A stretch of 64,000 bases of DNA from Terriglobia bacterium (GCA_965206645.1 CBDBKE010000002.1:384001-448000), one strand, 5' to 3'. Positions 48,472 through 64,000 are shown, counted from the stretch's first letter. Notes: a model not told the origin generated them from the sequence alone. Numbers and translations: made by a program.

Positions 48472-50129
48472 CCCGGATTTCCGTTTTAAAACTCCAAAGC
48501 TAACCTTATACTGACCTCCGACGCCAATATTTATGCCGGTTCCAGCGTCAATACAGCTTCCGGAGGTAGAAACCGAGTGGGTGAGAGGCAAAATCAGCCC
48601 TTTCAGTTCTCTTTCAATGCTGCATTGAAGGTCGATTTCCAGGGGTCGCGGGTTACTTCCGACGGCGGCCTGATCCTCGTGCGCGAATCAGACGAACATT
48701 TGGGATTCGGAGAACTCATCAAACAGCACTTGGCCGATCCTCGGAGAAAGAACACACGGTTGCCCTTTGCTGACCTCCTGCGCCAGTCCGTGTACAGCCG
48801 CTTGGCGGGTTACGAAGATATGAATGACGCGGAACGGCTCTCTCAAGATCCGACGTTCCGGCTGATCGGTTCAGAAAAGATCTGGGAGCGAGGAGCCGCG
48901 TTGACTTCCCGGCTGCAATCGTTCGAGACAGAACTACTGACGCAAGATGAGAACCTGGCTGGTTTGGCAGCGATCAACCGGGATTTAATCGCCAGGGCGG
49001 AAGCTATGGATTCCCCGCAACGGGTGGTGCTGGACATGGACTCGACCGAGATTCCGGTCTACGGCCAGCAGGAGCAGAGTGCCTACAACGGGCATTTCGA
49101 GTCGAGCTGCTATCACCCGTTGTTGCTGTTCAATCGCGAGGGTGACTGTCTGGCGGCCAAGCTGCGACCGGGCAACGTGCACAGCGCCGAGGACTGGAAA
49201 GAACTTCTCCTGCCGGAGATCGAGCGGCAGCAGCAGCTGGGCAAGGAAGTGGTGTTTCGTGCCGACGCGGCCTTTGCCAAGCCGGAGATTTACGAGGCTC
49301 TGGAGGAGCGGGAGGTAAAGTACGCCATCCGCATCCCGGCTAACGACAGCCTACAGCGGGACATTGAGGAGTTGCTGACTCGGCCGGTGGGGAGACCCAG
49401 CAAGAAGCCGTTGGTGGAGTTCAAGGGCTTTCTATACCAAGCGGCCAGTTGGAAGACAGCCCGCAGGGTGGTGGCCAAGGTGGAGCATCATCCAGGGGAG
49501 CTGTTCCCGCGAGTAGGGTTTATCGTTACGAACTTGACTCTGCCAAGTCGGGCGGTGATGCGGTTTTACAACAAGCGGGGGACAGCGGAGCAGTGGATCA
49601 AAGAAGGAAAGCAAGCAGTGAAGATGACGCGGCTCAGTTGTCACCGGTTCCGGTCGAACGAGGTCCGGCTGTGGCTCACCATCATTGCCTATAATCTCGG
49701 CAACCTGTGGCGGCGACTGGTGCTGCCACAGAGAATCGGGAACTGGTCCCTGACGAGCTTGCAACAGCGGTTGGTGAAAACGGGAGGACGGCTGGTGAAA
49801 CATGCGCGATATTACTGGCTTTTGCTGGCCGAAGGGCACTTGAGCCGGAGGCTGTTCAGCAGCATGCTGCGAACGATCTCGGCACTGCCGCTGCCAGACG
49901 GCTAGCGAACCGGGAGAGAGGGTAATTTTAGGTGCTCAGAAGTGGTCGGGCCGGATAAGTGTCAGCGGCGCGGCAGGCTGGGCAGGCGAACCCCGCACAG
50001 CGACTCCGAAGAACAGCCAAAATGTGCCGCACTACCACCTCAAAGAGGCCAGAGCTGTTTGCGGTTGACACGACAGGGTACGAGGCATAGCTTTTCGGGT
50101 GAAGAGGAAGCTCAAAATGGAAATTCCGG
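48472..50129 (+). mobile_element. IS1380 family insertion sequence (copy B)
   Basis: Ends CCCGGATTTCC / GGAAATTCCGG; no matching TSD. Confidence 0.9.
48577..49905 (+). CDS. IS1380 family transposase
   Basis: Close paralog of 18695-20023. Confidence 0.9.
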   Translation: MGERQNQPFQFSFNAALKVDFQGSRVTSDGGLILVRESDEHLGFGELIKQHLADPRRKNTRLPFADLLRQSVYSRLAGYEDMNDAERLSQDPTFRLIGSEKIWERGAALTSRLQSFETELLTQDENLAGLAAINRDLIARAEAMDSPQRVVLDMDSTEIPVYGQQEQSAYNGHFESSCYHPLLLFNREGDCLAAKLRPGNVHSAEDWKELLLPEIERQQQLGKEVVFRADAAFAKPEIYEALEEREVKYAIRIPANDSLQRDIEELLTRPVGRPSKKPLVEFKGFLYQAASWKTARRVVAKVEHHPGELFPRVGFIVTNLTLPSRAVMRFYNKRGTAEQWIKEGKQAVKMTRLSCHRFRSNEVRLWLTIIAYNLGNLWRRLVLPQRIGNWSLTSLQQRLVKTGGRLVKHARYYWLLLAEGHLSRRLFSSMLRTISALPLPDG

Positions 50130-51675
50130 TTCACCACGTCTTCTTGTACCTCAATCTTGCCGACGTGCGGGATCTGGGGTCGGACGAGGACTCGGTACTT
50201 GAAAGCCGGCTCTCCGAATCGAGCCGTGATATCGCGAATCTGCAAAGTGTAGTCGCCTTCCCGCTCGAAAGTGTACAGCACTCTTGCCTGGATCAGCTTG
50301 ACCCAATCGTCTCCGTCCCCGGCAACTTTTCGGAAATAGTTGGTCAGCATCTCCTCTCCGTTGGCGTCCATAACCGACAAATGCGGGTTGAAGACGGGAG
50401 TCGCCGCTTCGGGGGTCTCGAGCTCGAATGTCAACGTCGCTTTCGCTGGAACTTTGAACTTGAAAGTGTCCACGTCGCCCGGACGCTCGATTGCACCTCA
50501 AGCAGAAACGGAAGGGTTACCTCCGAAGCCTGGTCCGCGGTTTCATTGGGCTCTGTTTCTGTCAAGACGCTGTAATCTGTGGGCACGTGAACGGCATCCG
50601 TGCCCGAGGACGAGTCGCTCGCAGCCACCCTCCCCGTCGCCGCTGAGGACTTCCCCTCGCCCGAGCCGTGTCCCGTTGCGCTCTCGACAACGGTCCTCGC
50701 TTGCAGTGCCTGCAAACGATCGGGCTCAAGTTTTCTCCTAAAGGGGCTCCGCACCTCATCGATACCGTTCGGAGATGGTGGTGTGAGACGCTCTTCTTCC
50801 CTGGGAAAATGCAATGAACCCGGCTGGCCGACACAGAGCCGATAAGAATAGTCCGGCCCACCCAAACCTTGGAATGAGGTGACTGCCACAAAATAGCGGC
50901 CTGGCGTCTCAAATGTGTGGGTCAGACGAGCATCGGGCGCGAATGCGAGACGCAGCGGCCGCTCAGGGTCATACCAGCTTCCGCCTTCTCGGTACAGAGT
51001 GAACTGTGCTGTGTCAGCAGCGTTATGAGTGGTGTTGGAAACAGCGTGGAAGGTCAGCTCCTGACCCACGGCCACGTCGAACGAGTAGAAATCCCGTTCG
51101 GCCATTTCGGAGATCTTCCCGATGACAACGGCCGGAAATTCAAGGTGCTGCGCATCCTGGGTCCTGCTGTGGTCACTGGCAATTTCGAGCGTCACGGGCC
51201 GGGCGTCAACCAGGAACTCTAATGCGTTCGAGAGCCCGTTGGATGTTACCAGCCGGAACGAGTGCTTTCCCCTGTTGGCGTCCGGGTCGACCTCGATTTT
51301 CAAAAACGCCAGATGGCCCAGGACGGGCTTTTTTGCTCCGGTCTTTTCATTTGGTTTGCTGTCGAGCTCGATCTGCTCGACCTTTTCGACCCTGCCAGTC
51401 GCACCCTGAGTTGCGAACCAGACTGCATAGGCGCCTTCGAGGTTTTTCCCCCGGACTTGTGCTTCGAAGACCGAGCCTTGCTGGGCGGCCACAGGAATGA
51501 CGGATATCACCTCTGGAGTCGTCAAGGGCTCTGCTGTCTTTTGAGCCTGTAGCTGGCAATTAAGACAGAGGAAGAACCCAAGAGTCAGGGCACCAAGCGT
51601 ATTGCCCAACCTCGAAACTCGACCGTCTCTGCTCATCTGGACGATCCATTCGCCCTGTGGCTTTGGCTGCGGCAC
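50130..51675 (-). pseudogene. Secreted pre-peptidase C-terminal (PPC) repeat protein; frameshift near 50497 and 3' truncation by IS1380
   Basis: GKISEMAERDFYSF, GRYFVAV..F.G.GG....YRL; a 1-nt deletion breaks EGAIERPGDVDTFKF. Confidence 0.75.
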
Positions 51676-51821: not shown

Positions 51822-51928
51822 GCAGAATCCACAAAATGCCCTCCAGTACCCGTCGGTTGTCGGCTCAAGGCCGGTCCCCCCGGATTCTTCCGTAGCCGAG
51901 GGAGCAACGGCTCGATCTTTTCCCCCAG
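51822..51928 (-). pseudogene. IS5-family (DUF4096) transposase N-terminal remnant
   Basis: Manual translation with indels: EKIEPLLPRLRKNP...ADNRRVLEGILWIL. Confidence 0.6.
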
Positions 51929-52198
51929 ATTTTCGATTTCAAGTTTCCTGCGGCTCCAGAGTCTATGCTCAGCCGCCTGCCGCGTCAAGCTCGGAGCCCC
52001 AGACCTCTTTGGGGGGGGCGGCAGGGCTCGTTTTGGGACATCCAGCGCACTTGCCCGGGCCGTTTTTCGCCTCTCAACTGCCTCGCTGCCAATACTTTCT
52101 CAAGCTGCAGTAATTCTCTGAAACGGCAAGAGTTGGCTCAGACTTGGCAGATAGGTCCCCACCAGTCGGTTAGCGTCTACCGATGCTGCCACGCCGCC

Positions 52199-52400
52199 CA
52201 CTTGGATGTATAACGCCCTTATCGGAAACTGACCTACTACCCTAGCGGGCGTAGAGGGTCAGTTTCCGGTAAGCCGACTATACGGCCAAGTGAAACCGGG
52301 ATTGATAAACGCTAGGCCCTTGTGGGGACCTATCCGACATCGCTGTTGTAAAAGAGGGACGGTCCTTGGAAGGCAGCGGGGCCACGTTGCGCCTAGCCCC
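52199..52400. repeat. Non-coding element copy 1 (94-bp imperfect palindrome plus downstream block)
   Basis: CACTTGGATGTATA-ACGCCC-TTATCGGAAACTGACC...GGTCAGTTTCCGGTAA-GCCGAC-TATACGGCCAAGTG; homologous to 57218 and 59932. Confidence 0.85.
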
Positions 52401-52584
52401 CTCATGACACACCACTAGCGCGCCGATCGGCAGCTCGCGGTTCAATGGAAGGATCGCTCGGGGAACACGTTTCGACGTGCAGGCCGACTTCTCTTTCAGT
52501 TCTTCGCTGATCTTACTGGTGCAAGAAATAAGCGTTGTAGTTGTAGCACCGGCGTAGCACCGACAGCCTTTCTGCCAGTAAGAG

Positions 52585-52660
52585 TGGTGAGCACGGCAGG
52601 AGTCGAACCTGCAACCTGAGGATTAAGAGTCCCCTGCTCTGCCAGCTGAGCTACGTGCCC
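52585..52660 (-). tRNA. tRNA-Lys(CTT)
   Basis: GGGCACGTAGCTCAGCTGGCAGAGCAGGGGACTCTTAATCCTCAGGTTGCAGGTTCGACTCCTGCCGTGCTCACCA. Confidence 0.95.
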
Positions 52661-52678
52661 TTCGTCGTTCCTAACATC

Positions 52679-52881
52679 TTACATCAATAATACAATTTGT
52701 TCTGCACGTTCTAGCCCTGCGGGAATCGGCTCGAGAATGCTGGTGTCAGTTTTGGTGTCAGTTGGACCCTCAGGTTTGCCCGCCTGGATAGCCCGATTAA
52801 TCTCCGCCAACCGCTCCACGGCTGCCAGTTGGTAAGTGGGAGTGAGGTGAGCGTACCGGCAGGTCATGGCGATGGTCTTGT
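52679..52881 (-). pseudogene. Tyrosine integrase C-terminal remnant, truncated by IS21
   Basis: KTIAMTCRYAHL (catalytic Tyr box II) and TDTKTDT tail; ends 18 nt before the tRNA-Lys 5' end. Confidence 0.8.
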
Positions 52882-53014
52882 TATGAACGCCGGAGCAATA
52901 ATAGACCAGGGAGCGCCGCGCAAGCGGCGGTTTCTGGCGGTGCAAAATTAGACCAGCGCAGTTCGATTCCATCAAACATTGTGATTCTGATGTGTTTTGT
53001 GAAACACCGGAGGT

Positions 53015-54514
53015 GTGCACACAGTGGAACTCTATGCGCGTGTTCGACGAGCAGTTCAGGCTGAGGGGATCAGTGAACGGGAGGCGGCGCGGCAGTTCGG
53101 GCTAGCCCGCGAGACGGTCCGCAAGATGCTGCGGTACTCGATCCCTCCGGGCTATCGGCGGCAGCAGCCGGCGCGGCGGCCGAAGCTGGATGCCTGGGTG
53201 GGGATCATCGACCAGATCCTGGAGCAAGATAAGGCCCAGAGCAAGAAGCAACGCCACACGGCCAAGCGGGTTTTTGAGCGGCTGCGGGAGGAGCACGGAT
53301 TCCCGGGCGGCTACACCATCGTGAAGGACTACGTGCGGCTGCGGAAGCTGAGCCAGCGGGAGATGTTCGTGCCGCTGGAGCATCCACCGGGGGAGGCCCA
53401 GGCCGACTTTGGCGAAGCGCAAGTGGTGATCGGCGGGGTGGAGCGCAAGGCGCACTATTTCGTGATGGAGCTGCCGCAATCGGACGACTGCTTCGTGATG
53501 GCGTTTCCGGCTGAGACGACCGAAGCGTTCTTAGAAGGGCACAACCAGGCGTTCGGCTACTTCGGCGGAGTGCCTCGCACGATCCTGTACGACAACACCA
53601 AGCTGGCGGTGAGGCAGATCCTGGGTGACGGAACACGGAACAAGACGCGGGCGTTCTCCGAACTGCAGAGTCACTACCTGTTTGCGGAGAAGTTCGGACG
53701 ACCGGGCAAGGGCAATGACAAAGGGAAAGTGGAAGGACTAGTGGGTTACGTGCGGCGGAACTTCCTGGTGCCGGTGCCGCGGTGTGCCAGCTGGGAGGAG
53801 TTGCACGCGAAGCTGCGGGAACAGTGCACCCGGCGGCGAGAGCGGCGTCTGCGAGGACATCAAGAGACGATCGGCGAGCGGTTCGCGAAGGATCAACAGA
53901 GGCTGCTGCCCCTGCCGGCGACGCCCTATGAGGCCTGCGACAAACGGACCACACGGGTGACGTCACTGTCGCTGGTGCGGTATCGATCCAACGACTATTC
54001 GGTGCCGGTGGCTTGGGGGCACCGGGAGGTGCTGGTGAAGGGATTCGTCGAGGAAGTGGTGATCTGTGCAGCGAGCGAAGTGATCGCACGCCATGTCCGG
54101 AGCTAGGAACGGGAAGAGATGATCTTCGATCCGTTGCACTATCTGGCGCTGCTGGAGCAGAAGCCGAACGCGTTGAACCAGGCCGCCCCCCTGGCCGGCT
54201 GGGAGTTGCCGGAAGGCTTCGCGCAACTGCGGCGGCTGATGGAGGCGCGGTTAGGCAAGAAGGGCAAGCGGGAGTATGTGCAGGTCCTGCGACGGCTGGA
54301 GACGTTCCGTTGGACGGAAGTGTCGCTGGCCGTCGAGGACGCCTTGCGGCTGGGGGCGATCTGGTCTGACGCGGTCAAGCATCTGCTGCTGGGCCGGATC
54401 GAGCAGCGGCCGGCGCGGCTGGACCTGGAGCACTATCCGCACCTGCCGGCAACGCAGGTGGCCACCACAGCCGCCGCCGACTATCTGACCCTGCTCCGGG
54501 AAGGAGTCTGCTGA
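53015..54514 (+). pseudogene. istA: IS21 transposase with premature TAG at 54104
   Basis: QADFG, YDN, KGKVE DDE motifs; the same frame continues to 54514. Confidence 0.88.
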
Positions 54515-55278
54515 TGGACACGCCCCAGGTGTTGCTGGAACACCATCTGAAGGCCCTGCAATTACCCACCTTTTTGCGTGAGTACGACAAGGTGGCGCAG
54601 CAGTGCGCTGCCGAGGGCGTGGACTTCCCGCGCTACCTGCTGCGGTTGACGGAGCTGGAGCTGCTGGACCGGGAACGGCGCGCCACCGAGCGGCGCATTC
54701 ACCAAGCCAGGTTCGACGTGGTGAAGAGCCTCGACAGTTTCGATTTCCTGGCCCTTCCGTCGCTGAATAAGGCCTTGGTGCTCGAGCTGGCCCGAGGCGA
54801 GTTCATCGAACGCAAGGAGAACATCCTGGCTTTAGGGAACTCGGGCACGGGAAAAACCCACATTGCGTTGGCGCTGGGACTGGCCGCCTGTCAGAAAGGG
54901 TTCCGGGTCCGGTTCACTACGGCGGCCTCCCTGGCGCATGAGCTGATCGAGGCCAAGGACGAGCGGCGCCTGATGCGGTTCCAGAAGATGCTCTCCAGTT
55001 TCGAGCTGTTGATCATTGACGAGCTGGGTTTCGTGCCGCTATCCAAGACTGGGGCGGAGTTGCTGTTTGAGGTCTTCAGCCGGCGCTACGAACGCAGCGC
55101 CACCGTGGTGACCAGCAACCTGCCGTTCAACGAATGGACGGAGGCCTTCGGATCGGAGCGGCTGACCGGAGCCCTGCTGGATCGTCTCACCCACCATGTC
55201 CACATCCTGGAGATGAACGGGGAAAGTTGCCGGCTCAAGGACAGCAAACGAAGGCGTTCCGGAAAGCCTCGCGCCTGA
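54514..55278 (+). CDS. istB: IS21 helper ATPase
   Basis: GNSGTGKTH, LLIIDELG, TSN, LLDRLTHH. Confidence 0.95.
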   Translation: MDTPQVLLEHHLKALQLPTFLREYDKVAQQCAAEGVDFPRYLLRLTELELLDRERRATERRIHQARFDVVKSLDSFDFLALPSLNKALVLELARGEFIERKENILALGNSGTGKTHIALALGLAACQKGFRVRFTTAASLAHELIEAKDERRLMRFQKMLSSFELLIIDELGFVPLSKTGAELLFEVFSRRYERSATVVTSNLPFNEWTEAFGSERLTGALLDRLTHHVHILEMNGESCRLKDSKRRRSGKPRA

Positions 55279-55468
55279 TCTCACCCAATACTGGGCGACG
55301 AGTTGCGAGGGCGGCTTCCACTCCGGCCTAACCGCGCCGCCCTGCGGGCGTCGCAGGCCTCCGCTCCAACCGCCCCCGCAACTCCCTCTCAAATCAAAGC
55401 TTCCACCACCCCTGAACTGGTCTACTTTCTCTCCGCCGGAGTGGTCTAGTTTTACTCCGCCCTTGACA

Positions 55469-56194
55469 ACCGGGCTGGCCCTCGATAATTTCGCGGATAA
55501 TTGCGCAGCGAAAAGCCCCTCCACATCGACGAACGTTAAACGCCCCTTCCTGCGCTCGCTCTACAAGATCATCAACGACCGCAATATCCCCTTGGCTCTT
55601 CTTTATGATTTCCTCCTGGATGGACTGCCGGAACCCCGCTATTTTCTCGTAGGTCTCCAGGGCATCGTTTCCAGAAAAAGTTGTAGCCAGCTTCGCAAGA
55701 GCAGAAACTTTGGCGGGTCCCTCGGATGTGTTGATTCTTTCTTGCAACTGGGTCGGAAGTGAAAGAAGCTGAATGTACTTTCTCACGGTAGATGTTGACC
55801 AAGCCGTCTCCTCAGCCGCCCGTTCGTATGAACCGTAGCGATCATAGAGGGCCTTGAGCGCTCGCGCTTTGTCGAGTGGATGCATATCGGCTCTGTGTAC
55901 ATTTCCAACTAGGGACAGGGCAAGTGCATCAGCATCGTCAATATCGTCCCTGACCAAACAGGGCAACGGATCAAGCCCGACCCGCTGACATGCAAGCAGC
56001 CTTCGCTGGCCGACCAGAACCTCGTACCGGCCATCGGAACACGGGCGGACAATTGGCGGAGACAAAAGTCCTTTCTGGCGAATGCTTGCAGCAAGTTCCA
56101 TGATGCCCGAGTCTTCCTGCCCTGCATGGATATCTTTGCGTGCGTTTGACTCGGAAACGAACAGGCTCTTTAGGGGAATGTTCAGTTGTTGCAT
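55469..56194 (-). pseudogene. ParB/RepB/Spo0J-like protein, 3' end cut by IS21
   Basis: ELAASIRQKGLLSPPIVR, VGQRRLLAC, GNVHRADM (ENxxR degenerate), HTH; the ORF reads into the IS end. Confidence 0.75.
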
Positions 56195-56266
56195 TCCAGT
56201 ATCGCAGACCCAAATTCGGACTATTGTCCGTAGGACTAAAGTCCATACCGTACCACCATTTCCCTG

Positions 56267-56554
56267 TTGGCACAATCAAAGAGCAGACATATCCAGCCAC
56301 GTTCCGGTCCAGAGAAGGCGTTTGGCGAAGCGCTTCGGCAAGCCCGCCATGAACGAAGATTTTCCCAAGAGCAGTTGGGATTTGAGACTGGGTTCGACCG
56401 GACTTATATCAGCTTATTGGAACGCGGCCTGCAAAGCCCAACTATCAGAACTGTGGTGAGGCTTGCGGCCGTGTTGAAGGTAGCACCCTCCGACCTAATC
56501 AGACGTATGGAAATGCTTATGTCACCGCGGTCCCGAGAGCGCACGCGCCCGTGA
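56267..56554 (+). CDS. XRE family HTH regulator, divergent from the ParB-like gene
   Basis: FGEALRQAR..SQEQL...DRTYISLLERG..SPT. Confidence 0.88.
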   Translation: MAQSKSRHIQPRSGPEKAFGEALRQARHERRFSQEQLGFETGFDRTYISLLERGLQSPTIRTVVRLAAVLKVAPSDLIRRMEMLMSPRSRERTRP

Positions 56555-56816
56555 CGGGTGGCGCTCCTCGGGGTGGCGGGGGTGTAGCACTTTGCCCCTT
56601 CGTATAGCCTACCCCGTCAATGCGGCAACCTAGCCGGTCGCGCCCGGTGGTCTCCGCCCGCCGCACTGGTGGGGTAGCTCGCCCACTTTTCGGTGCTGAA
56701 AGCCTGCAAGGTGTTTGTGGGATCGGCTTTTATTAACTCAATTGAGTAGAACCCGCGAGCTGGGAGCTGCCTGCGTTCGTTCCCGCGTTTATCGTCGGCG
56801 CTATACTAGGGGGTGT

Positions 56817-57131
56817 TTAAGCAGGGGCTCTGGGCTCGCCAAGGGCCGCCATGTGTTGCTCCCACACCCGGCGCCGTTGCTCCCGGCGCTGAAGGACGAA
56901 ATCCTTCGCTTTCTCAAAGCCCAGAAAGTCATGGCGCTCTTTTAGCCGGTTGCAGGTTCGACAGGCTGCTACCAAATTGCTAGTCTCCTTTGTTCTTCCC
57001 TCGGCGCGGGGAACCACAAAGTCCACCGTCATCATCAAGGCATTATCGAAACCGGCGGTTCCGTCTAAACCGCAATAGTGACAGCGAAAACGGTCCCGCA
57101 TCAGGATTGCGAGGCCCTCTTCCTCCGTCAA
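56817..57131 (-). CDS. Small HNH endonuclease-like protein
   Basis: RDRFRCHYCG...TVDFVVPR...NLVAACRTCNRLK. Confidence 0.8.
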   Translation of the reverse strand: MTEEEGLAILMRDRFRCHYCGLDGTAGFDNALMMTVDFVVPRAEGRTKETSNLVAACRTCNRLKERHDFLGFEKAKDFVLQRREQRRRVWEQHMAALGEPRAPA

Positions 57132-57186
57132 CGGTGATTCCAGCGAACCAGGACCGGATCTGCTAAGCTATTGAAAGCATTGTCGC

Positions 57187-57223
57187 GGAGAGGTGTCCGA
57201 GTGGCTGAAGGAGCGCGCTTGGA
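57187..57223 (+). pseudogene. 5' half of tRNA-Ser(GGA), truncated at the anticodon loop
   Basis: GGAGAGGTGTCCGAGTGGCTGAAGGAGCGCGCTTGGA: acceptor 5' strand, Ser-type D arm, anticodon 5' stem and GGA. An extended -10 (TGCTAAGCT) lies upstream. No 3' half seen in the window. Confidence 0.8.
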
Positions 57224-57550
57224 TGTATAACGCCCTTATCGGAAACTGACCCACTACCCTGGCGGGCGTAGAGAGTCACTTGTCCGGTTTGCCGACTATA
57301 CGTCCAAGTGACCGCCATCGTCAGGGGAGGAGCCCAAGGCGCTGCGATAGTTTCCGCGTCGGCGAGCACTCGGGAGTTGGCAGCTGGACCGGAAAGAACC
57401 GGGGGGTTAGGGGCAATCTACCCGGCGTTGTTGGTGACAAGGCGGTGTATCTCGTGCCGCTTGGACTCTACTATTGCGGAAGGCGGAAGACCACCGGTGC
57501 GCCTAGCCGCGTCGCCGCGCTGACTTGCCTGGGGGCGGGCGGTAAGATGG
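57218..57550 (+). repeat. Non-coding element copy 2 with terminal promoter-like motif
   Basis: First ~50 nt nearly identical to copy 1; ends CTGACT-N17-TAAGAT. Confidence 0.85.
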
Positions 57551-57585
57551 CCGCACAGAGGGGGCTTTTTCGTGGTTGACGTAGG

Positions 57586-57623
57586 CTTTCGGGTGAAGGG
57601 GAAGCTCAAAATCGAAATTCCGG
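57586..57623 (+). mobile_element. Isolated IS1380 right-end remnant
   Basis: tttcgggtgaaggggaagctcaaaatcgaaattccgg matches 20211-20247 with one mismatch. Confidence 0.8.
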
Positions 57624-57758
57624 TCCCATGCGCTTGAGCCCTCAGCGCCGCTGGCGTACAATCATGAGCCGTGCGAACTTTGCAATCGACAAGCCCTGCT
57701 GAAATAGCAACTGAGTTGCCTCCTACTCGTCGGGCGGGACACACTTCACCGAGCAACT

Positions 57759-59645
57759 ATGCTTGATCTAATCATCATACTCGCGTTTATCATATACAGT
57801 ATAAGTAATGGGTTTCATAACAGATCTAAGGCTTCTCGCAATCTAGAAGAATATTTTCTAGCGGGTCGGTCAATTAAGGGATGGCGTGCTGGCTTTAGCC
57901 TGGCAGCCACCCAGTTTGCTGCCGATACACCGCTGTTAGTCACAGGACTCATCGCAACCGGCGGAATTTTCATGCTGTGGCGACTGTGGATCTACGGCCT
58001 GGGCTTCTTCATGATCGGCTTTCTCCTGGGACGGGCATGGCGTCGAGCCCGCGTGCTCACCGATGCGGAGCTCACCGAGCTTCGGTATAGTGGTTGCGGC
58101 GTCCTAATGTTACGCGGCCTGAAAGCCATTTATTACGGCACGGTCATGAATTGTACGATAATGGCGATGGTATTGGTTGCCGCCACGCGTATCTGCGAGG
58201 TTTTTCTCCCCTGGCATAAGTGGTTACCTGGTGCTTTCTACCAGTGGATGTACAACCTAGTTGAATGGGTAGGAATTCGTTTGTCGTCCGGCGCTACAGG
58301 GCTCGAACCGTTTGTGGCGACAACCAACAACTTATTCAGTATTCTTCTGATTATCGGATTTACGGCCCTCTATTCCACTACAGGTGGATTACGATCCGTC
58401 ATTGCCACCGACACCGTTCAGTTCAGCATCGCGATGATTGGCACGCTGATCTATGCAATCGTTGTGGTTATAAACTCTGGAGGTATCGGTCAGATCGTTC
58501 AGGGCCTTGTCCGGCATTATGGTGCAACCCAAGCGAGCCAATTCCTTTCGTTCAGCCCGACCACATGGGAAGCATTCATGCCGTTCCTAGTGGTTGTCAG
58601 CCTGCAGTGGTTTTTCGAGCGCAACAGCGATGGTACTGGTTACTTTGCCCAACGAATGATGTCCTGCAGAAGTGATCGGGATGCTCGAATGGCCGCTTTT
58701 ATCTTCACGTGGTTGCAAATTTTGCTGCGAAGTCTCTTCTGGTTGGTGATCGGCGTGGGTTTGTTGGTGATCTATCCATTCGATCCGGCTTCTGTCGGCG
58801 GAGAAACCTTTGTGGCCAGCAGAGAGCTGCTGTTTGCGACAGGAATAAGAGATCTCCTGCCTGCAGGCATCAAGGGCATTATGTTGACCGGGTTGTTGGC
58901 TGCGCTAGCCTCGACCATCGATACTCACTTGACATGGGGAGCCAGTTACTGGAGCAATGACTTATACCTGCGGATTGTGAATCGAGCATGGCTTAAACGA
59001 GAACCCTCCACCCGCGAACAGGTGCTTGTCGCTCGACTGTCGAATGTCGTGATCCTCGTCATTGCCTTGGTCATTATGACAAACCTGGAATCCATCCAGA
59101 CGGCCTGGTATATAACCCTCTTATTTGGAGCGGGAACGGGCGCTGTATTGATACTAAGATGGCTTTGGGAACGAATTAATCTCTACTCTGAGATCTCGGC
59201 CATTGGCGCGTCGCTGGTCTTGGCGCCGATCATCCTTTTTACGGTAGAAGCTGAATGGTTACGGTTATTGCTCATGTCATCGATGTCGACAGCGGTCGTT
59301 ATCACAGTAACTCTGCTTACGCGACCAACGGCGGAAGGCGTTCTGGTGGAATTTTATAAACGTGTGGATCCGCCCGGTTTCTGGAAGCAAACTGCCGAAA
59401 CAGTAGGTGTAGATGCACGGCGTCCGATTGAGGCATTGAAAAAGGGAGCCTATCTAACCGTCGTCACGAGTTTATCGCTCTATTTGCTGCTGGTTGGCTT
59501 CGGTAAGCTCATCTTGCCTAATCCAGCCAGTTCAGTGGTCTATTCATGGTTTTACATCGTGTTGGGAGTTGCGAGTGTAACGTTGTGGTGGCGAAGACTG
59601 TTTCCACCGAAAACTTCTGCGGATTCTGGTGGCGAACAAAGTTAA
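57759..59645 (+). CDS. Sodium:solute symporter (SSS) family transporter
   Basis: EEYFLAGRS, ATQFAADTPL, GGLRSVIATD, QRMMS, AALASTID; many TM helices; lower GC than the core. Confidence 0.93.
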   Translation: MLDLIIILAFIIYSISNGFHNRSKASRNLEEYFLAGRSIKGWRAGFSLAATQFAADTPLLVTGLIATGGIFMLWRLWIYGLGFFMIGFLLGRAWRRARVLTDAELTELRYSGCGVLMLRGLKAIYYGTVMNCTIMAMVLVAATRICEVFLPWHKWLPGAFYQWMYNLVEWVGIRLSSGATGLEPFVATTNNLFSILLIIGFTALYSTTGGLRSVIATDTVQFSIAMIGTLIYAIVVVINSGGIGQIVQGLVRHYGATQASQFLSFSPTTWEAFMPFLVVVSLQWFFERNSDGTGYFAQRMMSCRSDRDARMAAFIFTWLQILLRSLFWLVIGVGLLVIYPFDPASVGGETFVASRELLFATGIRDLLPAGIKGIMLTGLLAALASTIDTHLTWGASYWSNDLYLRIVNRAWLKREPSTREQVLVARLSNVVILVIALVIMTNLESIQTAWYITLLFGAGTGAVLILRWLWERINLYSEISAIGASLVLAPIILFTVEAEWLRLLLMSSMSTAVVITVTLLTRPTAEGVLVEFYKRVDPPGFWKQTAETVGVDARRPIEALKKGAYLTVVTSLSLYLLLVGFGKLILPNPASSVVYSWFYIVLGVASVTLWWRRLFPPKTSADSGGEQS

Positions 59646-59647
59646 AG

Positions 59648-59780
59648 TGTTCTTAGATGGAGATCTCCGGACACCGGGGTAGTCCGGTGGCAGGAGATTT
59701 TAGTTTAGGCCGCGATCTCCTGCGGCATATGATTGACTTCCTCCCAGAAGGCCTGACAGGGAGTGCGTCGCCTATTAGGC
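59648..59780 (-). mobile_element. Probable IS481-like 3' end remnant
   Basis: Minus strand RTPCQAFWEE...IAA* followed by an end reading GTGTCCGGAGATCTCCATCTAAGAACA. Confidence 0.4.
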
Positions 59781-59931
59781 CATCTCATGAGTGCAGGCCG
59801 GGTGCTGTCGGTTCGGGCGGGTCCTGACACCTGCAGCTCTCGGAGCTGCTTCCTGAAAGCATAAGTAAACCCTAGCCGACAAGGCGGGACCTATCTACTC
59901 TCAGCTATTAAGTGACGCTGCCTCCAGGTAG

Positions 59932-60205
59932 GCACTTGTCCGGTAAGCCGACTATACGTCCAAGTGACCGCCGACGTCAGCGGAGGAGCCGCAAGGCGCT
60001 GGGGTACTTTCCGAGAAGCCGACTATTCGCCCAGCTGAACCCGGGATTGGTAAACACTAGCCCGTTTGTGGGGACCTATCCGGCATTGCTCGTGGCAAGG
60101 CAGTGTATCTCGTGCCGCTTGGACTTCCGCCAGTACAGCAGCGGGGACCACGCAACTGGCCGAGTTGCCGGGTTGACTTGCCTGCGGGTGGGGCCTAGGA
60201 TGGTT
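59932..60205 (+). repeat. Non-coding element copy 3 (lacks the left arm) with terminal promoter-like motif
   Basis: CACTTGTCCGGTAAGCCGACTATACGTCCAAGTGACCGCC; shares blocks with both copy 1 and copy 2; TTGACT-N17-TAGGAT at 60173-60201. Confidence 0.85.
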
Positions 60206-60310
60206 GTCCAAGAGTAGGTTCCTTTGTCATGATTGACAACACGACATCACTAGTAACTGGAACTGGATGGAAATCGGATTGACCCTCATCTGTGCAAAGG
60301 AGGTTGGGCA

Positions 60311-62017
60311 ATGATCTCTCGGCGCGCATCGTTTTCGCCTGATCTGCGTCTTGCATTTGCCCTCTGCTCGACACTGGTCGTCTGCGGGCTTGGAGTGGCG
60401 GATGCGGGCGGCCAGAAGGATCCGGCGCTCGATGCGAAATCGACGGTTGTGGAAGGCCAGATTGCACCGCGGTTGCAGAATCTGGGGGACCACAAGCATA
60501 GCGTCACGACAAATTCGCCTCGGACACAGCTCTTCTTCAACCAGGGGCTCAACCTCGCCTTCGGCTTCAACCACCGGGAGGCCGGTCGTTCGTTCCGCGA
60601 GGCTGCGCGGCTCGACCCGGACTGCGCCATGGCCTATTGGGGACAAGCGCTTGTCCTGGGTCCGAACATCAACCTACCGATGCCGCCCAAGGCGGAACCG
60701 GAAGCCTACAAGCTGATCCACAAAGCCGTTATGCTCAAAGCGAAGGTCTCGGAGAAGGAGCGAGCTTACATTGACGCGTTGGCAAAGCGGTACTCGAATG
60801 AAGAAAAGCCCGATCGGAAAGCGCTCGACCGCGCTTATGCCGAAGCTATGCGTGATCTTTCCGAGCGCTATCCCGATGATCTGGACGTTGCCACGCTCTA
60901 CGCCGAAGCGGTCATGGATCTGAGGCCATGGAACTATTGGACCCGGGACATGCAACCCTATCCCGAGACGGTTGAGATCCTTCGAGTTCTCGAGTCCGTC
61001 CTGCAGCATAACGCGAACCACCCGGGCGCCATTCACTACTACATCCACACTGTCGAGTTCGCCCGCCCTGAATTGGCCGAAGCCGGAGCTGACCGTTTGG
61101 GCCAGCTCACGCCGGGGGCCGGCCACCTAGTGCATATGCCGTCCCACATCTACAGGAGGGTAGGTCGCTATACCGACGCATCCAAGAGCAACGAACTGGC
61201 CATCCTCGCCGATGAAGATTACATCACCCAGTGCCGCGCCCAAGGGATCTACCCGCTGGCCTACTACCCGCACAACATCCACTTCCTGTGGGACTCGGCC
61301 ACGATGGAGGGGCGAAGTCGGGTAGCGGTTGCAGCCGCACGCAAGGTGGCCTCAAGTATTCCCACCGACGCTTGGCGTGAGATCCCCCTGCTGCACCAGT
61401 TCCTTGTGACTCCCTTGCACGCCCTCACTCGCTTCGGGAAGTGAGAGGAGGTTTTGCAGGAACCGCGGCCGCCTGCCGCCAGTCCGTTCTGGACCGGCAT
61501 CTGGCACTACTCTCGCGGCTTGGCTTTCATCGCCACCAACCGGCTGGAGGAGGCTTCCCAGGAACTACAGGCTCTCCAGGCGATTGCCAATGACAAGTCC
61601 CTAAAGGGCCTGCGGGTGACCTTCTCCGCCAACGGGGCAACCCCCATCCTGGTCATCGCGACTGAGGCTCTGGCGGGAGAGTTAGCCGCCAAGCAGGGTG
61701 ACTTTGAGAAAGCGATTACTCATCTCCACCGGGGTGTCTTGCTCGAAGACAGCCTCATCTACACCGAGCCCCCGGATTGGCACATTCCCGTTCGCCAATC
61801 GTTGGGCGCCGTGCTGCTCGAGGCCGGGCGACCGTTGGAAGCAGAAACGATCTACTGGCAAGACTTGAAGTGGAACCGAGAGAATGGCTGGGCTCTTTAC
61901 GGCCTAATGAAGAGCCTCGAAGCACAAGGAAAGACGGAGCAAGCTGGGGAAATTGAGAAGAGGTTCCGAAAAGCGTGGGCAATGGCGGACGTAAGACTCA
62001 CTGCATCGCGTTTCTGA
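60311..62017 (+). pseudogene. Secreted TPR-repeat protein with in-frame TGA at 61442
   Basis: FNQGL..AFGFNH.EA.RSF, HPGAIHYYIH, HLVHMPSHIY; FGK*EEVL reads on in frame to the EPPDW and NGWAL motifs. Confidence 0.85.
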
Positions 62018-62531: not shown

Positions 62532-64000
62532 TGACCAGACCGGTTTTTTGTACCAACCGTAGTGAGAGTTCACATCGCAGCCTGGGGCTGTGAAACTGGT
62601 TTCAGTGGCAGGGGAGGGCTATAGGCCCCCGGCGCCGGGGGCATCCCAGCGACCGCGCCAACTCCACCACCTGTGTGAACAGATCGTTCAGGGCACGGGC
62701 GTGTCCGAAACTGGTTCAGCGTCCAAAAGTCCGGCCCCGCTCCGGCCGCCAGATAACGGAACGCCAGGTCCTCCGCACCCGCTGTTCCAGACGGCGGGCC
62801 GAGGTCACGCCCAGCGCGTAGGCTACAGCCACACCTTCAGCAAAAGCGGCCGGATGATAGGCCGGGCGGCCTTCTTCCACGTAGCCCTGCTCAAACGCAC
62901 TCAGTTCCAGCCGCTCCACGACTTGGTGCACCAGATGTGATAGCCGAGCGCCGAGTGCGGCCGCACCGTGTTGGCGCGGTCCGGCATGGGGCGGCCACGT
63001 GGCATGGACTCGAGCCGAGCGCCGAGTGCGGCCGCACCGTGTTGTATTGCACCCTCCACTGTTCAATCACCACCTGTGCCTCCTTCAACGAGTAGAAGAT
63101 CTCTCCATTCAGGCATTCGTCCCGCAGCTTCCCATTGAAACTCTCGCAGTACCCGTTCTCCCAGGGACTGCCCGGTTCGATGTACAGTGTCCCGGTCCCT
63201 AGATTTGCCAACCACTGGCGCAGTTGTTTGGCGATGAACTCGGGACCATTGTCGGATCGAATCTGTTCCGGTATCCCTCGCCACAACATCACGTCCGACA
63301 ACGCCTCAATGATTTGTTGGCTGCCCATCCTCCGCTCCACCCGGATCGCCAGGCATTCCCGCGTGTACTCATCCAGCAAGGTCAGCAGCCGCAGCGTTCT
63401 CCCCTCGTGCGTTCTGGCACTCATGAAGTCGTAGCTCCACACGTGGTTCGGTCGCTCCGGCCTCAGTCGTACACAGGAACCGTCGTTCAGCCACAGCCGT
63501 CCTCGCGGCCTTTGTTTTTGCGGCACTTTTAGCCCTTCCCGCCGCCAAATCCGCTGCACCCGGTCCTTGCCCACTTCCCAGCCCGCACTCCGCAGCAACG
63601 CTGTGATCCTCCGGTAGCCATATCGCCCGTACTTCGCTCCCAGGGCAATGATCACTCGGGTCAGAGCATCCTCGTCCACCCGATGAATCGGCTCGTATCG
63701 TTGTGTCCCTCGCCATTGCCCCAGCAGCCGGCAGGCAGGCCGTTCCGACAACCCGTGTTGCTCCCACGCACGCTCCACCGCACAACGCCGCCGCTCAGGG
63801 CTCAGAAGTTTCCCTGTGCCACATCCCGCAGTACCTGCTTCTCCAGAGAAAGCTCCGCTACCAACCGCTTCAGCCGCGTGTTTTCCTTCTCCAACTCCTT
63901 TAGCCGTTTTGCCTGCACCACCTTCAGCCCGCCGTATTCCTTCCGCCACCGGTAGTAGGTTTGGGTGTGGATTCCAGCTTCTTTGCAGGCTTGGGGCGCA
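62532..64000 (-). mobile_element. IS3 family element (copy 2), rearranged at the orfB 3' end, runs off the window
   Basis: Near-identical to 43022-44271 apart from inserts within 62643-63011. Confidence 0.92.
62643..62939 (-). mobile_element. IS1182-family (DUF772) transposase fragment inside IS3
   Basis: GRPAYHP..LKVWL.AYALGVTSARRLEQRV..DLAFRYLA...PDFWTLNQFR, with indels. Confidence 0.75.

Follow-up and report, generated by a model that had tools for sequence, protein, structure and literature searches.

The three copies in the window

The DNA analyzed in this study is a 64-kb stretch (referred to as the window) of the genome of a Terriglobia bacterium (GCA_965206645.1; genome G000, contigs C1–C4), in which it occupies positions 384001–448000 of contig C2. 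Between positions 52199 and 60205 of the window, a preliminary description made from the sequence alone had recognized three diverged copies of a non-coding element, and had proposed that inverted recombinase sites and an outwardly oriented promoter form a platform that accretes and expresses cargo genes. A gene encoding a sodium:solute symporter (SSS; 57759–59645, plus strand; Pfam SSF, E = 1.9e-33) lies between copies 2 and 3, and a gene for a TPR-like protein (60311–61444, plus strand; a weak TPR_2 match, with only 32%-identical relatives in the genus) is located downstream of copy 3. The region from approx. 52 to 61 kb shows no synteny within the genus.

Copy 1 is a nested imperfect palindrome of 195 nt (52145–52339) with the order outer module, arm A, 10-nt spacer, arm B, outer module. 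Folded as single-stranded DNA it reaches −50.3 kcal/mol (z = −7.3; none of 200 shuffled sequences was as good), and four long palindromes of this type, with the same limits, are present in the genome. At its center is the 94-nt imperfect palindrome with inverted sites noted in the preliminary description, which we found to be composed of two 42-nt arms, 76% complementary and separated by 10 nt: arm A at 52199–52240 (plus strand; nhmmer E = 3e-11; alignment limits clustering at 52196 and 52240) and arm B at 52251–52292 (minus strand; E = 6e-13; alignment ends clustering at 52292). Arm A carries the hexamer ACGCCC and arm B, on its own strand, the hexamer GTCGGC; reading of the sequence (ACGCCC against the reverse complement of GCCGAC) bore out the mismatch at five of the six hexamer positions.

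Copy 2 begins with a dimer of the same kind (57218–57309; arm A at 57218–57257, plus strand, and arm B at 57268–57309, minus strand), continues with middle modules (57310–57486, plus strand) that are common to copy 3 and 8–14 other places, and ends in a promoter module (57487–57552, plus strand; nhmmer E = 5e-13), in which CTGACT (57520–57525) and TAAGAT (57543–57548) are separated by 17 nt. The body of copy 3 (59858–60146) consists of an outer-type module, two type B arms in tandem, an outer module and a shared block, and is followed by another promoter module (60147–60203, plus strand; E = 2e-12) with the hexamers TTGACT-N17-TAGGAT (60173–60201). The tandem arms, placed by nhmmer at 59933–59965 and 60006–60033, both on the minus strand, include the second, directly repeated site that had been reported near position 60006. 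Both promoter-like ends are present in the sequence as reported; in a promoter scan scored out of 12, that of copy 3 obtained 9 and that of copy 2 obtained 8, which falls under the listing threshold.

All three copies were recovered by alignment. Copies 1 and 2 share 69 nt at 91% identity (52196–52264 and 57213–57281), copies 1 and 3 share 66 nt at 79%, and copies 2 and 3 share blocks of 61 nt (90%), 62 nt (82%) and 48 nt (77%). The 62-nt block, which contains AAGGCRGTG...TTGGACT, is the sequence already noted as common to copies 2 and 3, and the 48-nt block corresponds to the promoter ends.

A family of 42-nt arms and its promoter module

The term "three-copy element" proved to be wrong for the genome as a whole. 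An nhmmer profile of the arm, iterated to convergence, yielded 69 arms in G000, and a BLAST search with the three copies, after merging of overlapping matches, gave approx. 99 repeat loci totaling 9,798 bp; a 401-nt query spanning copy 2 had 44 matches. According to crude open reading frame (ORF) calls, 73 of the 99 loci lie mostly outside ORFs, compared with only about 13% of the genome, and 11 of the 69 arms are located inside ORFs.

The arm is bounded by CACTTGG on one side and by CTAC (read as GTAG on the complementary strand) on the other; the CTAC terminus is found in 35 of the 51 arms that extend to that end, in columns carrying 1.3–2.0 bits. Alignment starts and ends cluster at both of these limits, which indicates that the arm is a discrete 42-nt unit. 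The arms are of two types, A (GTATA-ACGCSC), which contains ATAA...TTAT, and B (GTATA-GTCGGC). The hexamer columns, earlier interpreted as the spacer of a recombination site, carry approx. 1 bit because they are dimorphic and not because they vary freely; the hexamers are two fixed alternatives and not free spacers.

Arms occur either singly or as tail-to-tail A/B pairs of approx. 94 nt, which can be folded into an imperfect hairpin. Twelve pairs of arms in G000 lie within 150 nt of each other; all of them are tail-to-tail, with the CTAC ends facing, and all combine type A with type B (as read from the nhmmer list), while the spacer is 10–11 nt long in ten. Copy 3 contributes one additional pair, its two tandem B arms. 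The outer modules around the arms are themselves inverted, and alternative left extensions also exist. Ten full dimers are mutually 73–94% alike (median 88%), and the copies of insertion sequences (ISs) of the same genome are 99–100% alike; judged by this divergence of the dimers, the family is old.

No strand bias of the arms relative to genes was observed: in intervals between tandem genes 12 arms have the same orientation as the genes and 11 the opposite one, 21 arms lie in convergent and 14 in divergent intervals, and 11 in ORFs. The GC skew is too weak to define the strands of replication. The neighborhood of the repeats is enriched in IS elements (repeat loci adjoin ISs of the DDE_Tnp_1_4 type 8 times, IS30 5 times and IS3 4 times) and in paralogous accessory genes (SBBP/DUF7948, SDR and TPR families). 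Targeting of arms by IS30 was considered and rejected: one of the five IS30 copies (C1:292488–293663) interrupts a type A arm, with duplication of 3 bp (GCG; an uninterrupted version of this context is at C3:752433), and the other four are not inserted in arms.

The promoter module is present in 31 copies in G000 (nhmmer) and comprises a complete sigma70-type promoter with a ribosome-binding stretch. By the same crude ORF calls, 24 of these copies read into an ORF, 18 of them at a distance of up to 210 nt from its start, and 7 face the end of a gene, in agreement with the earlier statement that the promoters stand in front of genes. The weakest copies retain the −35 and −10 hexamers while the remainder drifts. 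Several copies continue into a common start (MIGQT...), and one of the genes concerned encodes a Ser/Thr kinase with TPR repeats. Between positions 56900 and 60400 the promoter scan revealed 6 promoter-like sites, compared with 2.3 ± 1.6 in shuffled sequences, and a scan of the same region revealed no terminator-like site; promoter-like sites occur both in and beside the arms.

A single case of a composite similar to copy 2 (arms plus promoter) was found in another genome of the genus (G003:C2:1620296–1623436, at approx. 1259–1600 of that stretch), where it is located upstream of a lipoprotein-like gene, the orthologue of C4:717690–718904. The G000 orthologue lies directly after tRNA-Ser(GCT), and the synteny between the two genomes breaks just after the −10 box.

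Twenty sequencing runs from 8 studies hold part of the region 55500–60400. The RNA evidence consists of assembled contigs of an RNA library, which record presence only and not transcription starts, strands or levels; moreover, many of the contig joints between copies 2 and 3 stem from other copies or other organisms. Contigs of one metatranscriptome cover 57252–57603 (352 nt, 2 differences), and RNA-library contigs also lie on 57140–57264 (2 differences), which spans the junction between a partial tRNA gene (see below) and the arm, on three parts of the symporter gene and on 60218–61187. No contig of the RNA run lies on 55500–56500, which in itself proves nothing.

Outside G000, matches to copy 1 were found in all three other genomes of the genus (22–25 in each) and, in small numbers, in 6 of the 37 genomes from elsewhere in the class. 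The core of the arm, written as a 27-nt IUPAC pattern, was used to search a collection with one genome per species, in which about 0.5 matches would be expected by chance (our own estimate). It matched 55 stretches (referred to as foreign loci), nearly all from records with titles of the Acidobacteriota type (Acidobacteriota, Terriglobia, Acidobacteriaceae, Candidatus Acidiferrales/Acidiferrum, Thermoanaerobaculia and Tunturiibacter); outside this group are one metagenome-assembled genome (MAG) titled Deltaproteobacteria, another titled Dehalococcoidia, and three contigs of one "uncultured bacterium" MAG. There were no matches in viral contigs. Of 401 genomes drawn evenly from the phylum and searched with the pattern (up to one mismatch), only four carry it, namely G000 with 37 matches and three others with 2, 7 and 2, while the reversed pattern, used as a control, had none in all 401.

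In the foreign loci approx. 30 nt stay fixed as primary sequence, the outer limit at CACTTGG is sharp and the flanks are unrelated. These loci contain 82 arms according to nhmmer (38 of type A, 39 of type B and 5 unclear) and 8 dimers, all tail-to-tail, of which 7 are A/B and one combines an unclear arm with an A arm. The hairpin with its mismatched hexamer, which was a central point of the preliminary description, is thus conserved (A/B in 12 of 12 dimers in G000 and in 7 of 8 in other genomes). The combination of strong conservation with patchy distribution is the pattern of horizontally moving DNA, and not that of a core host site.

Candidate enzymes, structural tests and the surrounding genes

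The sites had been assigned the 11-6-11 geometry of XerCD/dif, with arms resembling the XerC type. This assignment was not supported: the left 11-nt arm of type A agrees with the reverse complement of the right one at only 3 of 11 positions (by reading), and the symmetric part is limited to ATAA/TTAT, then with a 5-nt center. A short dif-like motif led to one site in the genome (C4, approx. 400160–400186, minus strand; ATAA-N6-TTATG..AA), a candidate chromosome dimer resolution site; the 11-nt arms match this single putative dif site at only 5 and 6 of 11 positions. Mobilization by a tyrosine recombinase found no better support. None of the 36 matches to PF00589 in G000, of which the two best (C4:609221 and C2:61092) are Xer candidates, lies in the window, the nearest being 85.7 kb away, and 7 of them are located within 5 kb of a repeat locus, a zone that makes up 14.8% of the genome, so that there is no enrichment. 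The comparison with an integron also failed: no integrase is encoded nearby, no integron-like array or cassette boundary was seen in the arm-flanked intervals and symporter flanks sampled, and the GTT/AAC boxes of attC sites are absent by eye from the ends of the palindrome. A search for Y2 transposases gave no match, but its control was silent too, and one for IS110-type enzymes gave one broken sub-threshold match.

The ORFs sampled between outward-facing arms encode a kinase, an FGE-sulfatase, an AMP-binding enzyme, a redoxin, a radical SAM protein, a hydrolase and proteins without assignment; no transposase domain was detected in the 13 + 2 ORFs of eight outward-facing arm pairs and two adjoining intervals. 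Across the 55 foreign loci, the neighbors of the arms include no recurrent protein family; the largest cluster comprises 4 loci from only two records. On reading of the sequences, neither the ends of the 94-nt dimer nor those of the 195-nt palindrome showed a target-site duplication, in G000 or in other genomes. The check for a parent IS covered G000 and the 55 foreign loci, and no high-copy IS of G000 carries an arm at its ends. The earlier classification of the element as non-coding and non-autonomous is supported.

Two genes for Y1_Tnp proteins, resembling REP-associated tyrosine transposases (RAYTs; REP, repetitive extragenic palindrome), are present in G000, in the regions C4:708578–711883 and C4:114372–117572. 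Each is flanked by its own inverted palindromes, unrelated to the arms and present in 8 and 18 copies genome-wide, respectively. These genes and their palindromes are a second, unrelated REP-like system.

A structured RNA had been suggested as an alternative, and the tests we made do not favor it. At the gathering level, the only Rfam matches in the window are two tRNAs, and permissive scans of 57100–57700 and 51900–60400 gave nothing credible. The candidate RAGATH-32 was rejected, as it scores 13.1 bits in copy 2 (cut-off 41.8) with no better match in G000, and at that level it also matches in 13 of 14 control genomes, in none over the cut-off. The middle module is conserved in other genomes, although without a consensus fold or compensatory change (alifold −5.7). 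An intra-arm CACTTG/CAAGTG stem of 6–9 bp is present in a subset of the arms, without covariation (see below). A likeness to CRISPR repeats (of type I-F) was also rejected, since a scan of the genome gave no more than two arrays of three repeats, whose repeats are unrelated, and Rfam showed no match to a CRISPR family. These mini-arrays, at C4:1993815 and C4:740722, have three direct repeats at 61–63-nt spacing, and the first resembles a small CRISPR array. None of the outcomes named in the preliminary description as refuting it occurred outright: the repeats match no known IS end, MITE (miniature inverted-repeat transposable element) or Rfam family, and they are not confined to a single locus.

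The symporter gene was examined as possible cargo. It was not found in the three other genomes of the genus, where only a paralogue with 37–44% identity is present, its product is 87% identical to those of genes from another family of the class, and its GC content is 0.51–0.53 (0.61 for the genome); on these grounds the gene looks horizontally acquired. The tally for the symporter is 35 of 301 genomes, including two unpublished ones, G077 and G105, on which no conclusion depends. The nucleotide homology to its relatives (82% identity) stops at the ends of the ORF and the relatives lack adjoining arms, so that the gene was rejected as a cassette, although at this level of identity the flanks would be unrecognizable anyway. 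Overall, the preliminary interpretation is partly supported, the apparent acquisition of this gene being among the supported parts and a cassette boundary among those without support.

Directly upstream of copy 2 lies the 5′ half of a tRNA-Ser(GGA) gene together with about 30 bp of its upstream region (57157–57223, plus strand), joined to arm A at the anticodon. It is 94% identical over 67 nt to the intact gene at C2:675631–675720 and is not called as a tRNA by ARAGORN. The junction falls on CTTGGA, which is common to both partners, and was not found in 5 other related genomes. Just downstream of the promoter of copy 2 there is a separate repeat of approx. 45 nt (57583–57625), of which the genome holds about 49 copies (23 matches on the same strand and 26 inverted); it also occurs, inverted, at 51925–51948.

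Between copies 1 and 2 lies an element of the IS21 family (istA, istB; 52882–55468), of which there are eleven or so full-length, ~100%-identical copies elsewhere. The istA frame of this copy is interrupted by a TAG codon (54104–54106), and since about a dozen copies are ~100% identical over their full length, this stop is probably common to all. Two more high-copy ISs lie at 48472–50130 and 63013–64000, one of them of the DDE_Tnp_1_4 type with some twenty near-identical copies; G000 is unusually IS-laden, and the same ISs are present in genomes of the same genus. Genes for a small HNH endonuclease (56817–57131, minus strand), a ParB-like protein (55394–56275, minus strand) and a helix-turn-helix protein (56267–56554, plus strand) are located between IS21 and copy 2 and may be the remnant of a mobile element. 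A segment of 91 bp (56528–56618) is 100% identical to C4:764339–764429, beside a copy of the promoter module there.

Interpretation and comparison with known systems

On balance, and with moderate confidence, we conclude that the three copies are members of a dispersed, non-autonomous family of mosaic repeats resembling bacterial interspersed mosaic elements (BIMEs) and REP doublets forming hairpins (REPINs), able to donate promoters. We chose this reading because the anatomy is that of REPs and BIMEs, and the tests made for a MITE and for Xer or integron sites failed. Multiplication of the family would take place at the DNA level, the A/B dimer being what is copied, and would most likely involve a single-stranded hairpin on which an enzyme, either encoded elsewhere or no longer present, acts in trans. 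The copies would then be reshuffled by recombination between modules, and a promoter module landing in front of a gene could drive it, including new acquisitions such as the symporter. It is well known that perfect palindromes are destroyed in cells. The mismatched hexamer could be a feature by which the hairpin is recognized, a role favored by its conservation across genomes, or could do no more than make a long palindrome tolerable to the cell.

Several observations weigh against this conclusion. The foreign loci and synteny blocks examined, which terminate in ISs or in unrelated sequence, contained no pair of an empty and a filled site, and recent copies with identical sequence were not found; whereas the copy number, the limits of the unit, the rule of pairing, the distribution and the absence of linked genes are observed, mobility, the hairpin intermediate and promoter activity are inferred. 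No cognate enzyme was found: the two RAYT-like genes are 33 and 48 kb away from the nearest arm, and tblastn with either protein gave no match in the 55 foreign loci. In contrast to REPs, whose stems have 5–13 bp, the unit is 42 nt long and lacks a supported stem-loop, and no RAYT is flanked by arms, the RAYT-like genes carrying other palindromes. A single arm forms no convincing stem-loop, and the counts of CAC/CAG against AAGTG/AACTG (18, 17, 3 and 8; Fisher p = 0.19) give no covariation of the stem. As regards the promoters, the common start MIGQT... suggests that part of their family may have spread with gene duplicates. In addition, an RNA contig runs across the promoter of copy 2, so that it marks no start there, and RNA (or DNA carried over) is not restricted to positions downstream of it.

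A MITE of a DDE-type IS, with type A as the left and type B as the right terminal inverted repeat (TIR), moved in trans as double-stranded DNA, would explain why 42-nt arms are conserved as primary sequence without internal pairing and why their outer limit is sharp against unrelated flanks in other genomes; the exclusive A/B pairing also suits distinct left and right ends. We nevertheless regard this origin as unlikely, given the lack of target-site duplications at either limit, of a transposase domain in the sampled ORFs between arms, of a recurrent protein beside them (at most 4 of 55 loci, from two records) and of arms at the ends of the high-copy ISs. There is a small chance that the A/B hairpin, whose mismatched hexamer is conserved across classes, is instead a structure-specific single-stranded DNA site, through which an unlinked HUH-type enzyme or tyrosine recombinase would place short modules, a complete promoter among them, beside newly acquired genes; such a trans-acting system would deliver promoters and capture genes while spreading horizontally among Acidobacteriota. 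The recombinase platform in its original form, that is, XerCD-like or integron-like sites, folded or duplex, which capture and express cargo, is unsupported and in our opinion highly improbable. It can draw on the paired arms around a mismatched hexamer kept across distant genomes, the ATAA...TTAT of type A, the diverse and often unannotated genes between arms, a symporter foreign to the genus searched and the break in synteny right after the −10 box. Against it stand the lack of dyad symmetry within the sites and their weak likeness to the dif-like site, the distance and lack of enrichment of tyrosine recombinases, the absence of a recurrent neighbor gene in the 55 loci, the homology of the symporter gene ending with its ORF in relatives devoid of arms, and the junction with the half tRNA-Ser gene, which lies at the end of the arm and not at the hexamer.

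The conservation of approx. 30 nt between distant genomes with different flanks, the RNA-library contigs over copy 2 and the tRNA junction, and the promoter-like sites in and beside the arms might also be expected of an element that serves the host in cis, be it a DNA site with a regulatory or protein-binding role or an RNA that is structured or processed, maintained by selection and not by selfish spread. Such a role is quite doubtful for a sequence present in only 4 of 401 genomes of the phylum, with no strand bias relative to genes, no Rfam family (RAGATH-32 being far below its cut-off), no fold of the middle module and no covariation. The least probable of the explanations, to which we give hardly any weight, is that the repeats are passive leftovers of segmental duplications, in which upstream regions were copied together with paralogous genes. 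The promoter copies that run into a common start codon and N-terminus, and the flanking SBBP/DUF7948, SDR and TPR families, are in line with it, but arms that are sharply limited, lie in both orientations next to unrelated genes and recur in distant genomes are not.

The Acidobacteriota are abundant in soil, genetic tools for them are few and little is known about their mobile DNA. Here a 42-nt unit that has hardly changed between scattered genomes of the phylum travels together with a promoter module that looks strong. The family provides a handle on the expression of acquired genes, as well as a practical marker of plastic regions, and the existence of two arm types is a reason to look for the protein that recognizes them.

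Correia elements of Neisseria are promoter-carrying MITEs, i.e. small intergenic inverted-repeat elements. The present family resembles them in being small, intergenic, arranged as inverted repeats and able to supply promoters, but we found no target-site duplication or parent IS, and the promoter is a separate module. The attC sites of integrons and the attP site of CTX phage, used with XerCD, are recombination sites of folded single strands. They share with the dimers an imperfect hairpin whose paired arms enclose an unpaired center, and differ in that the arms have no dyad boxes, no integrase nearby and no one-directional array, but instead 69 dispersed copies and arms that are also single. 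We know of no mechanism for the reuse of promoters in general or for the spread of the promoter module described here. Reused or "mobile" promoters (PMC3575422) are likewise near-identical promoters in front of unrelated genes (here those for the symporter, the TPR protein, the kinase and others), but in G000 the promoter is, in some copies, physically linked to a hairpin repeat family.

From the same phylum, TIR-flanked RAYT-like transposases (TIRYTs) are on record in Acidobacteria (PMC3733652), and class 3 TnpA-Y1 enzymes with atypical hairpins have been described by Quentin 2018 (PMC6006769). Both are single-strand HUH enzymes with moderately abundant flanking repeats; the repeats flanking the two such genes in G000 are, however, unrelated to the arms. 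In the accessible literature on REPs, MITEs and intergenic repeats of Acidobacteria, and on RAGATH-32, we found no account of the arm family, which may be listed in the supplements of a MITE survey of 183,232 genomes (PMC11602168).

The closest likeness is that to REPs, BIMEs and REPINs. Families of REPs are mostly bound to a species or genus, whereas the arm is kept across classes of the phylum. If its enzyme were found, it would tell whether repeats of the REP kind can persist in the absence of a linked RAYT. Di Nocera 2013 (PMC3733652) describes repeats tagged with GTAG, inverted dimers in which the spacer is conserved, heterodimers and mosaic clusters, and each has its counterpart here: tens of short, non-coding, extragenic copies with a GTAG tag, inverted dimers of two different unit types around a short conserved spacer, and mosaic clusters.

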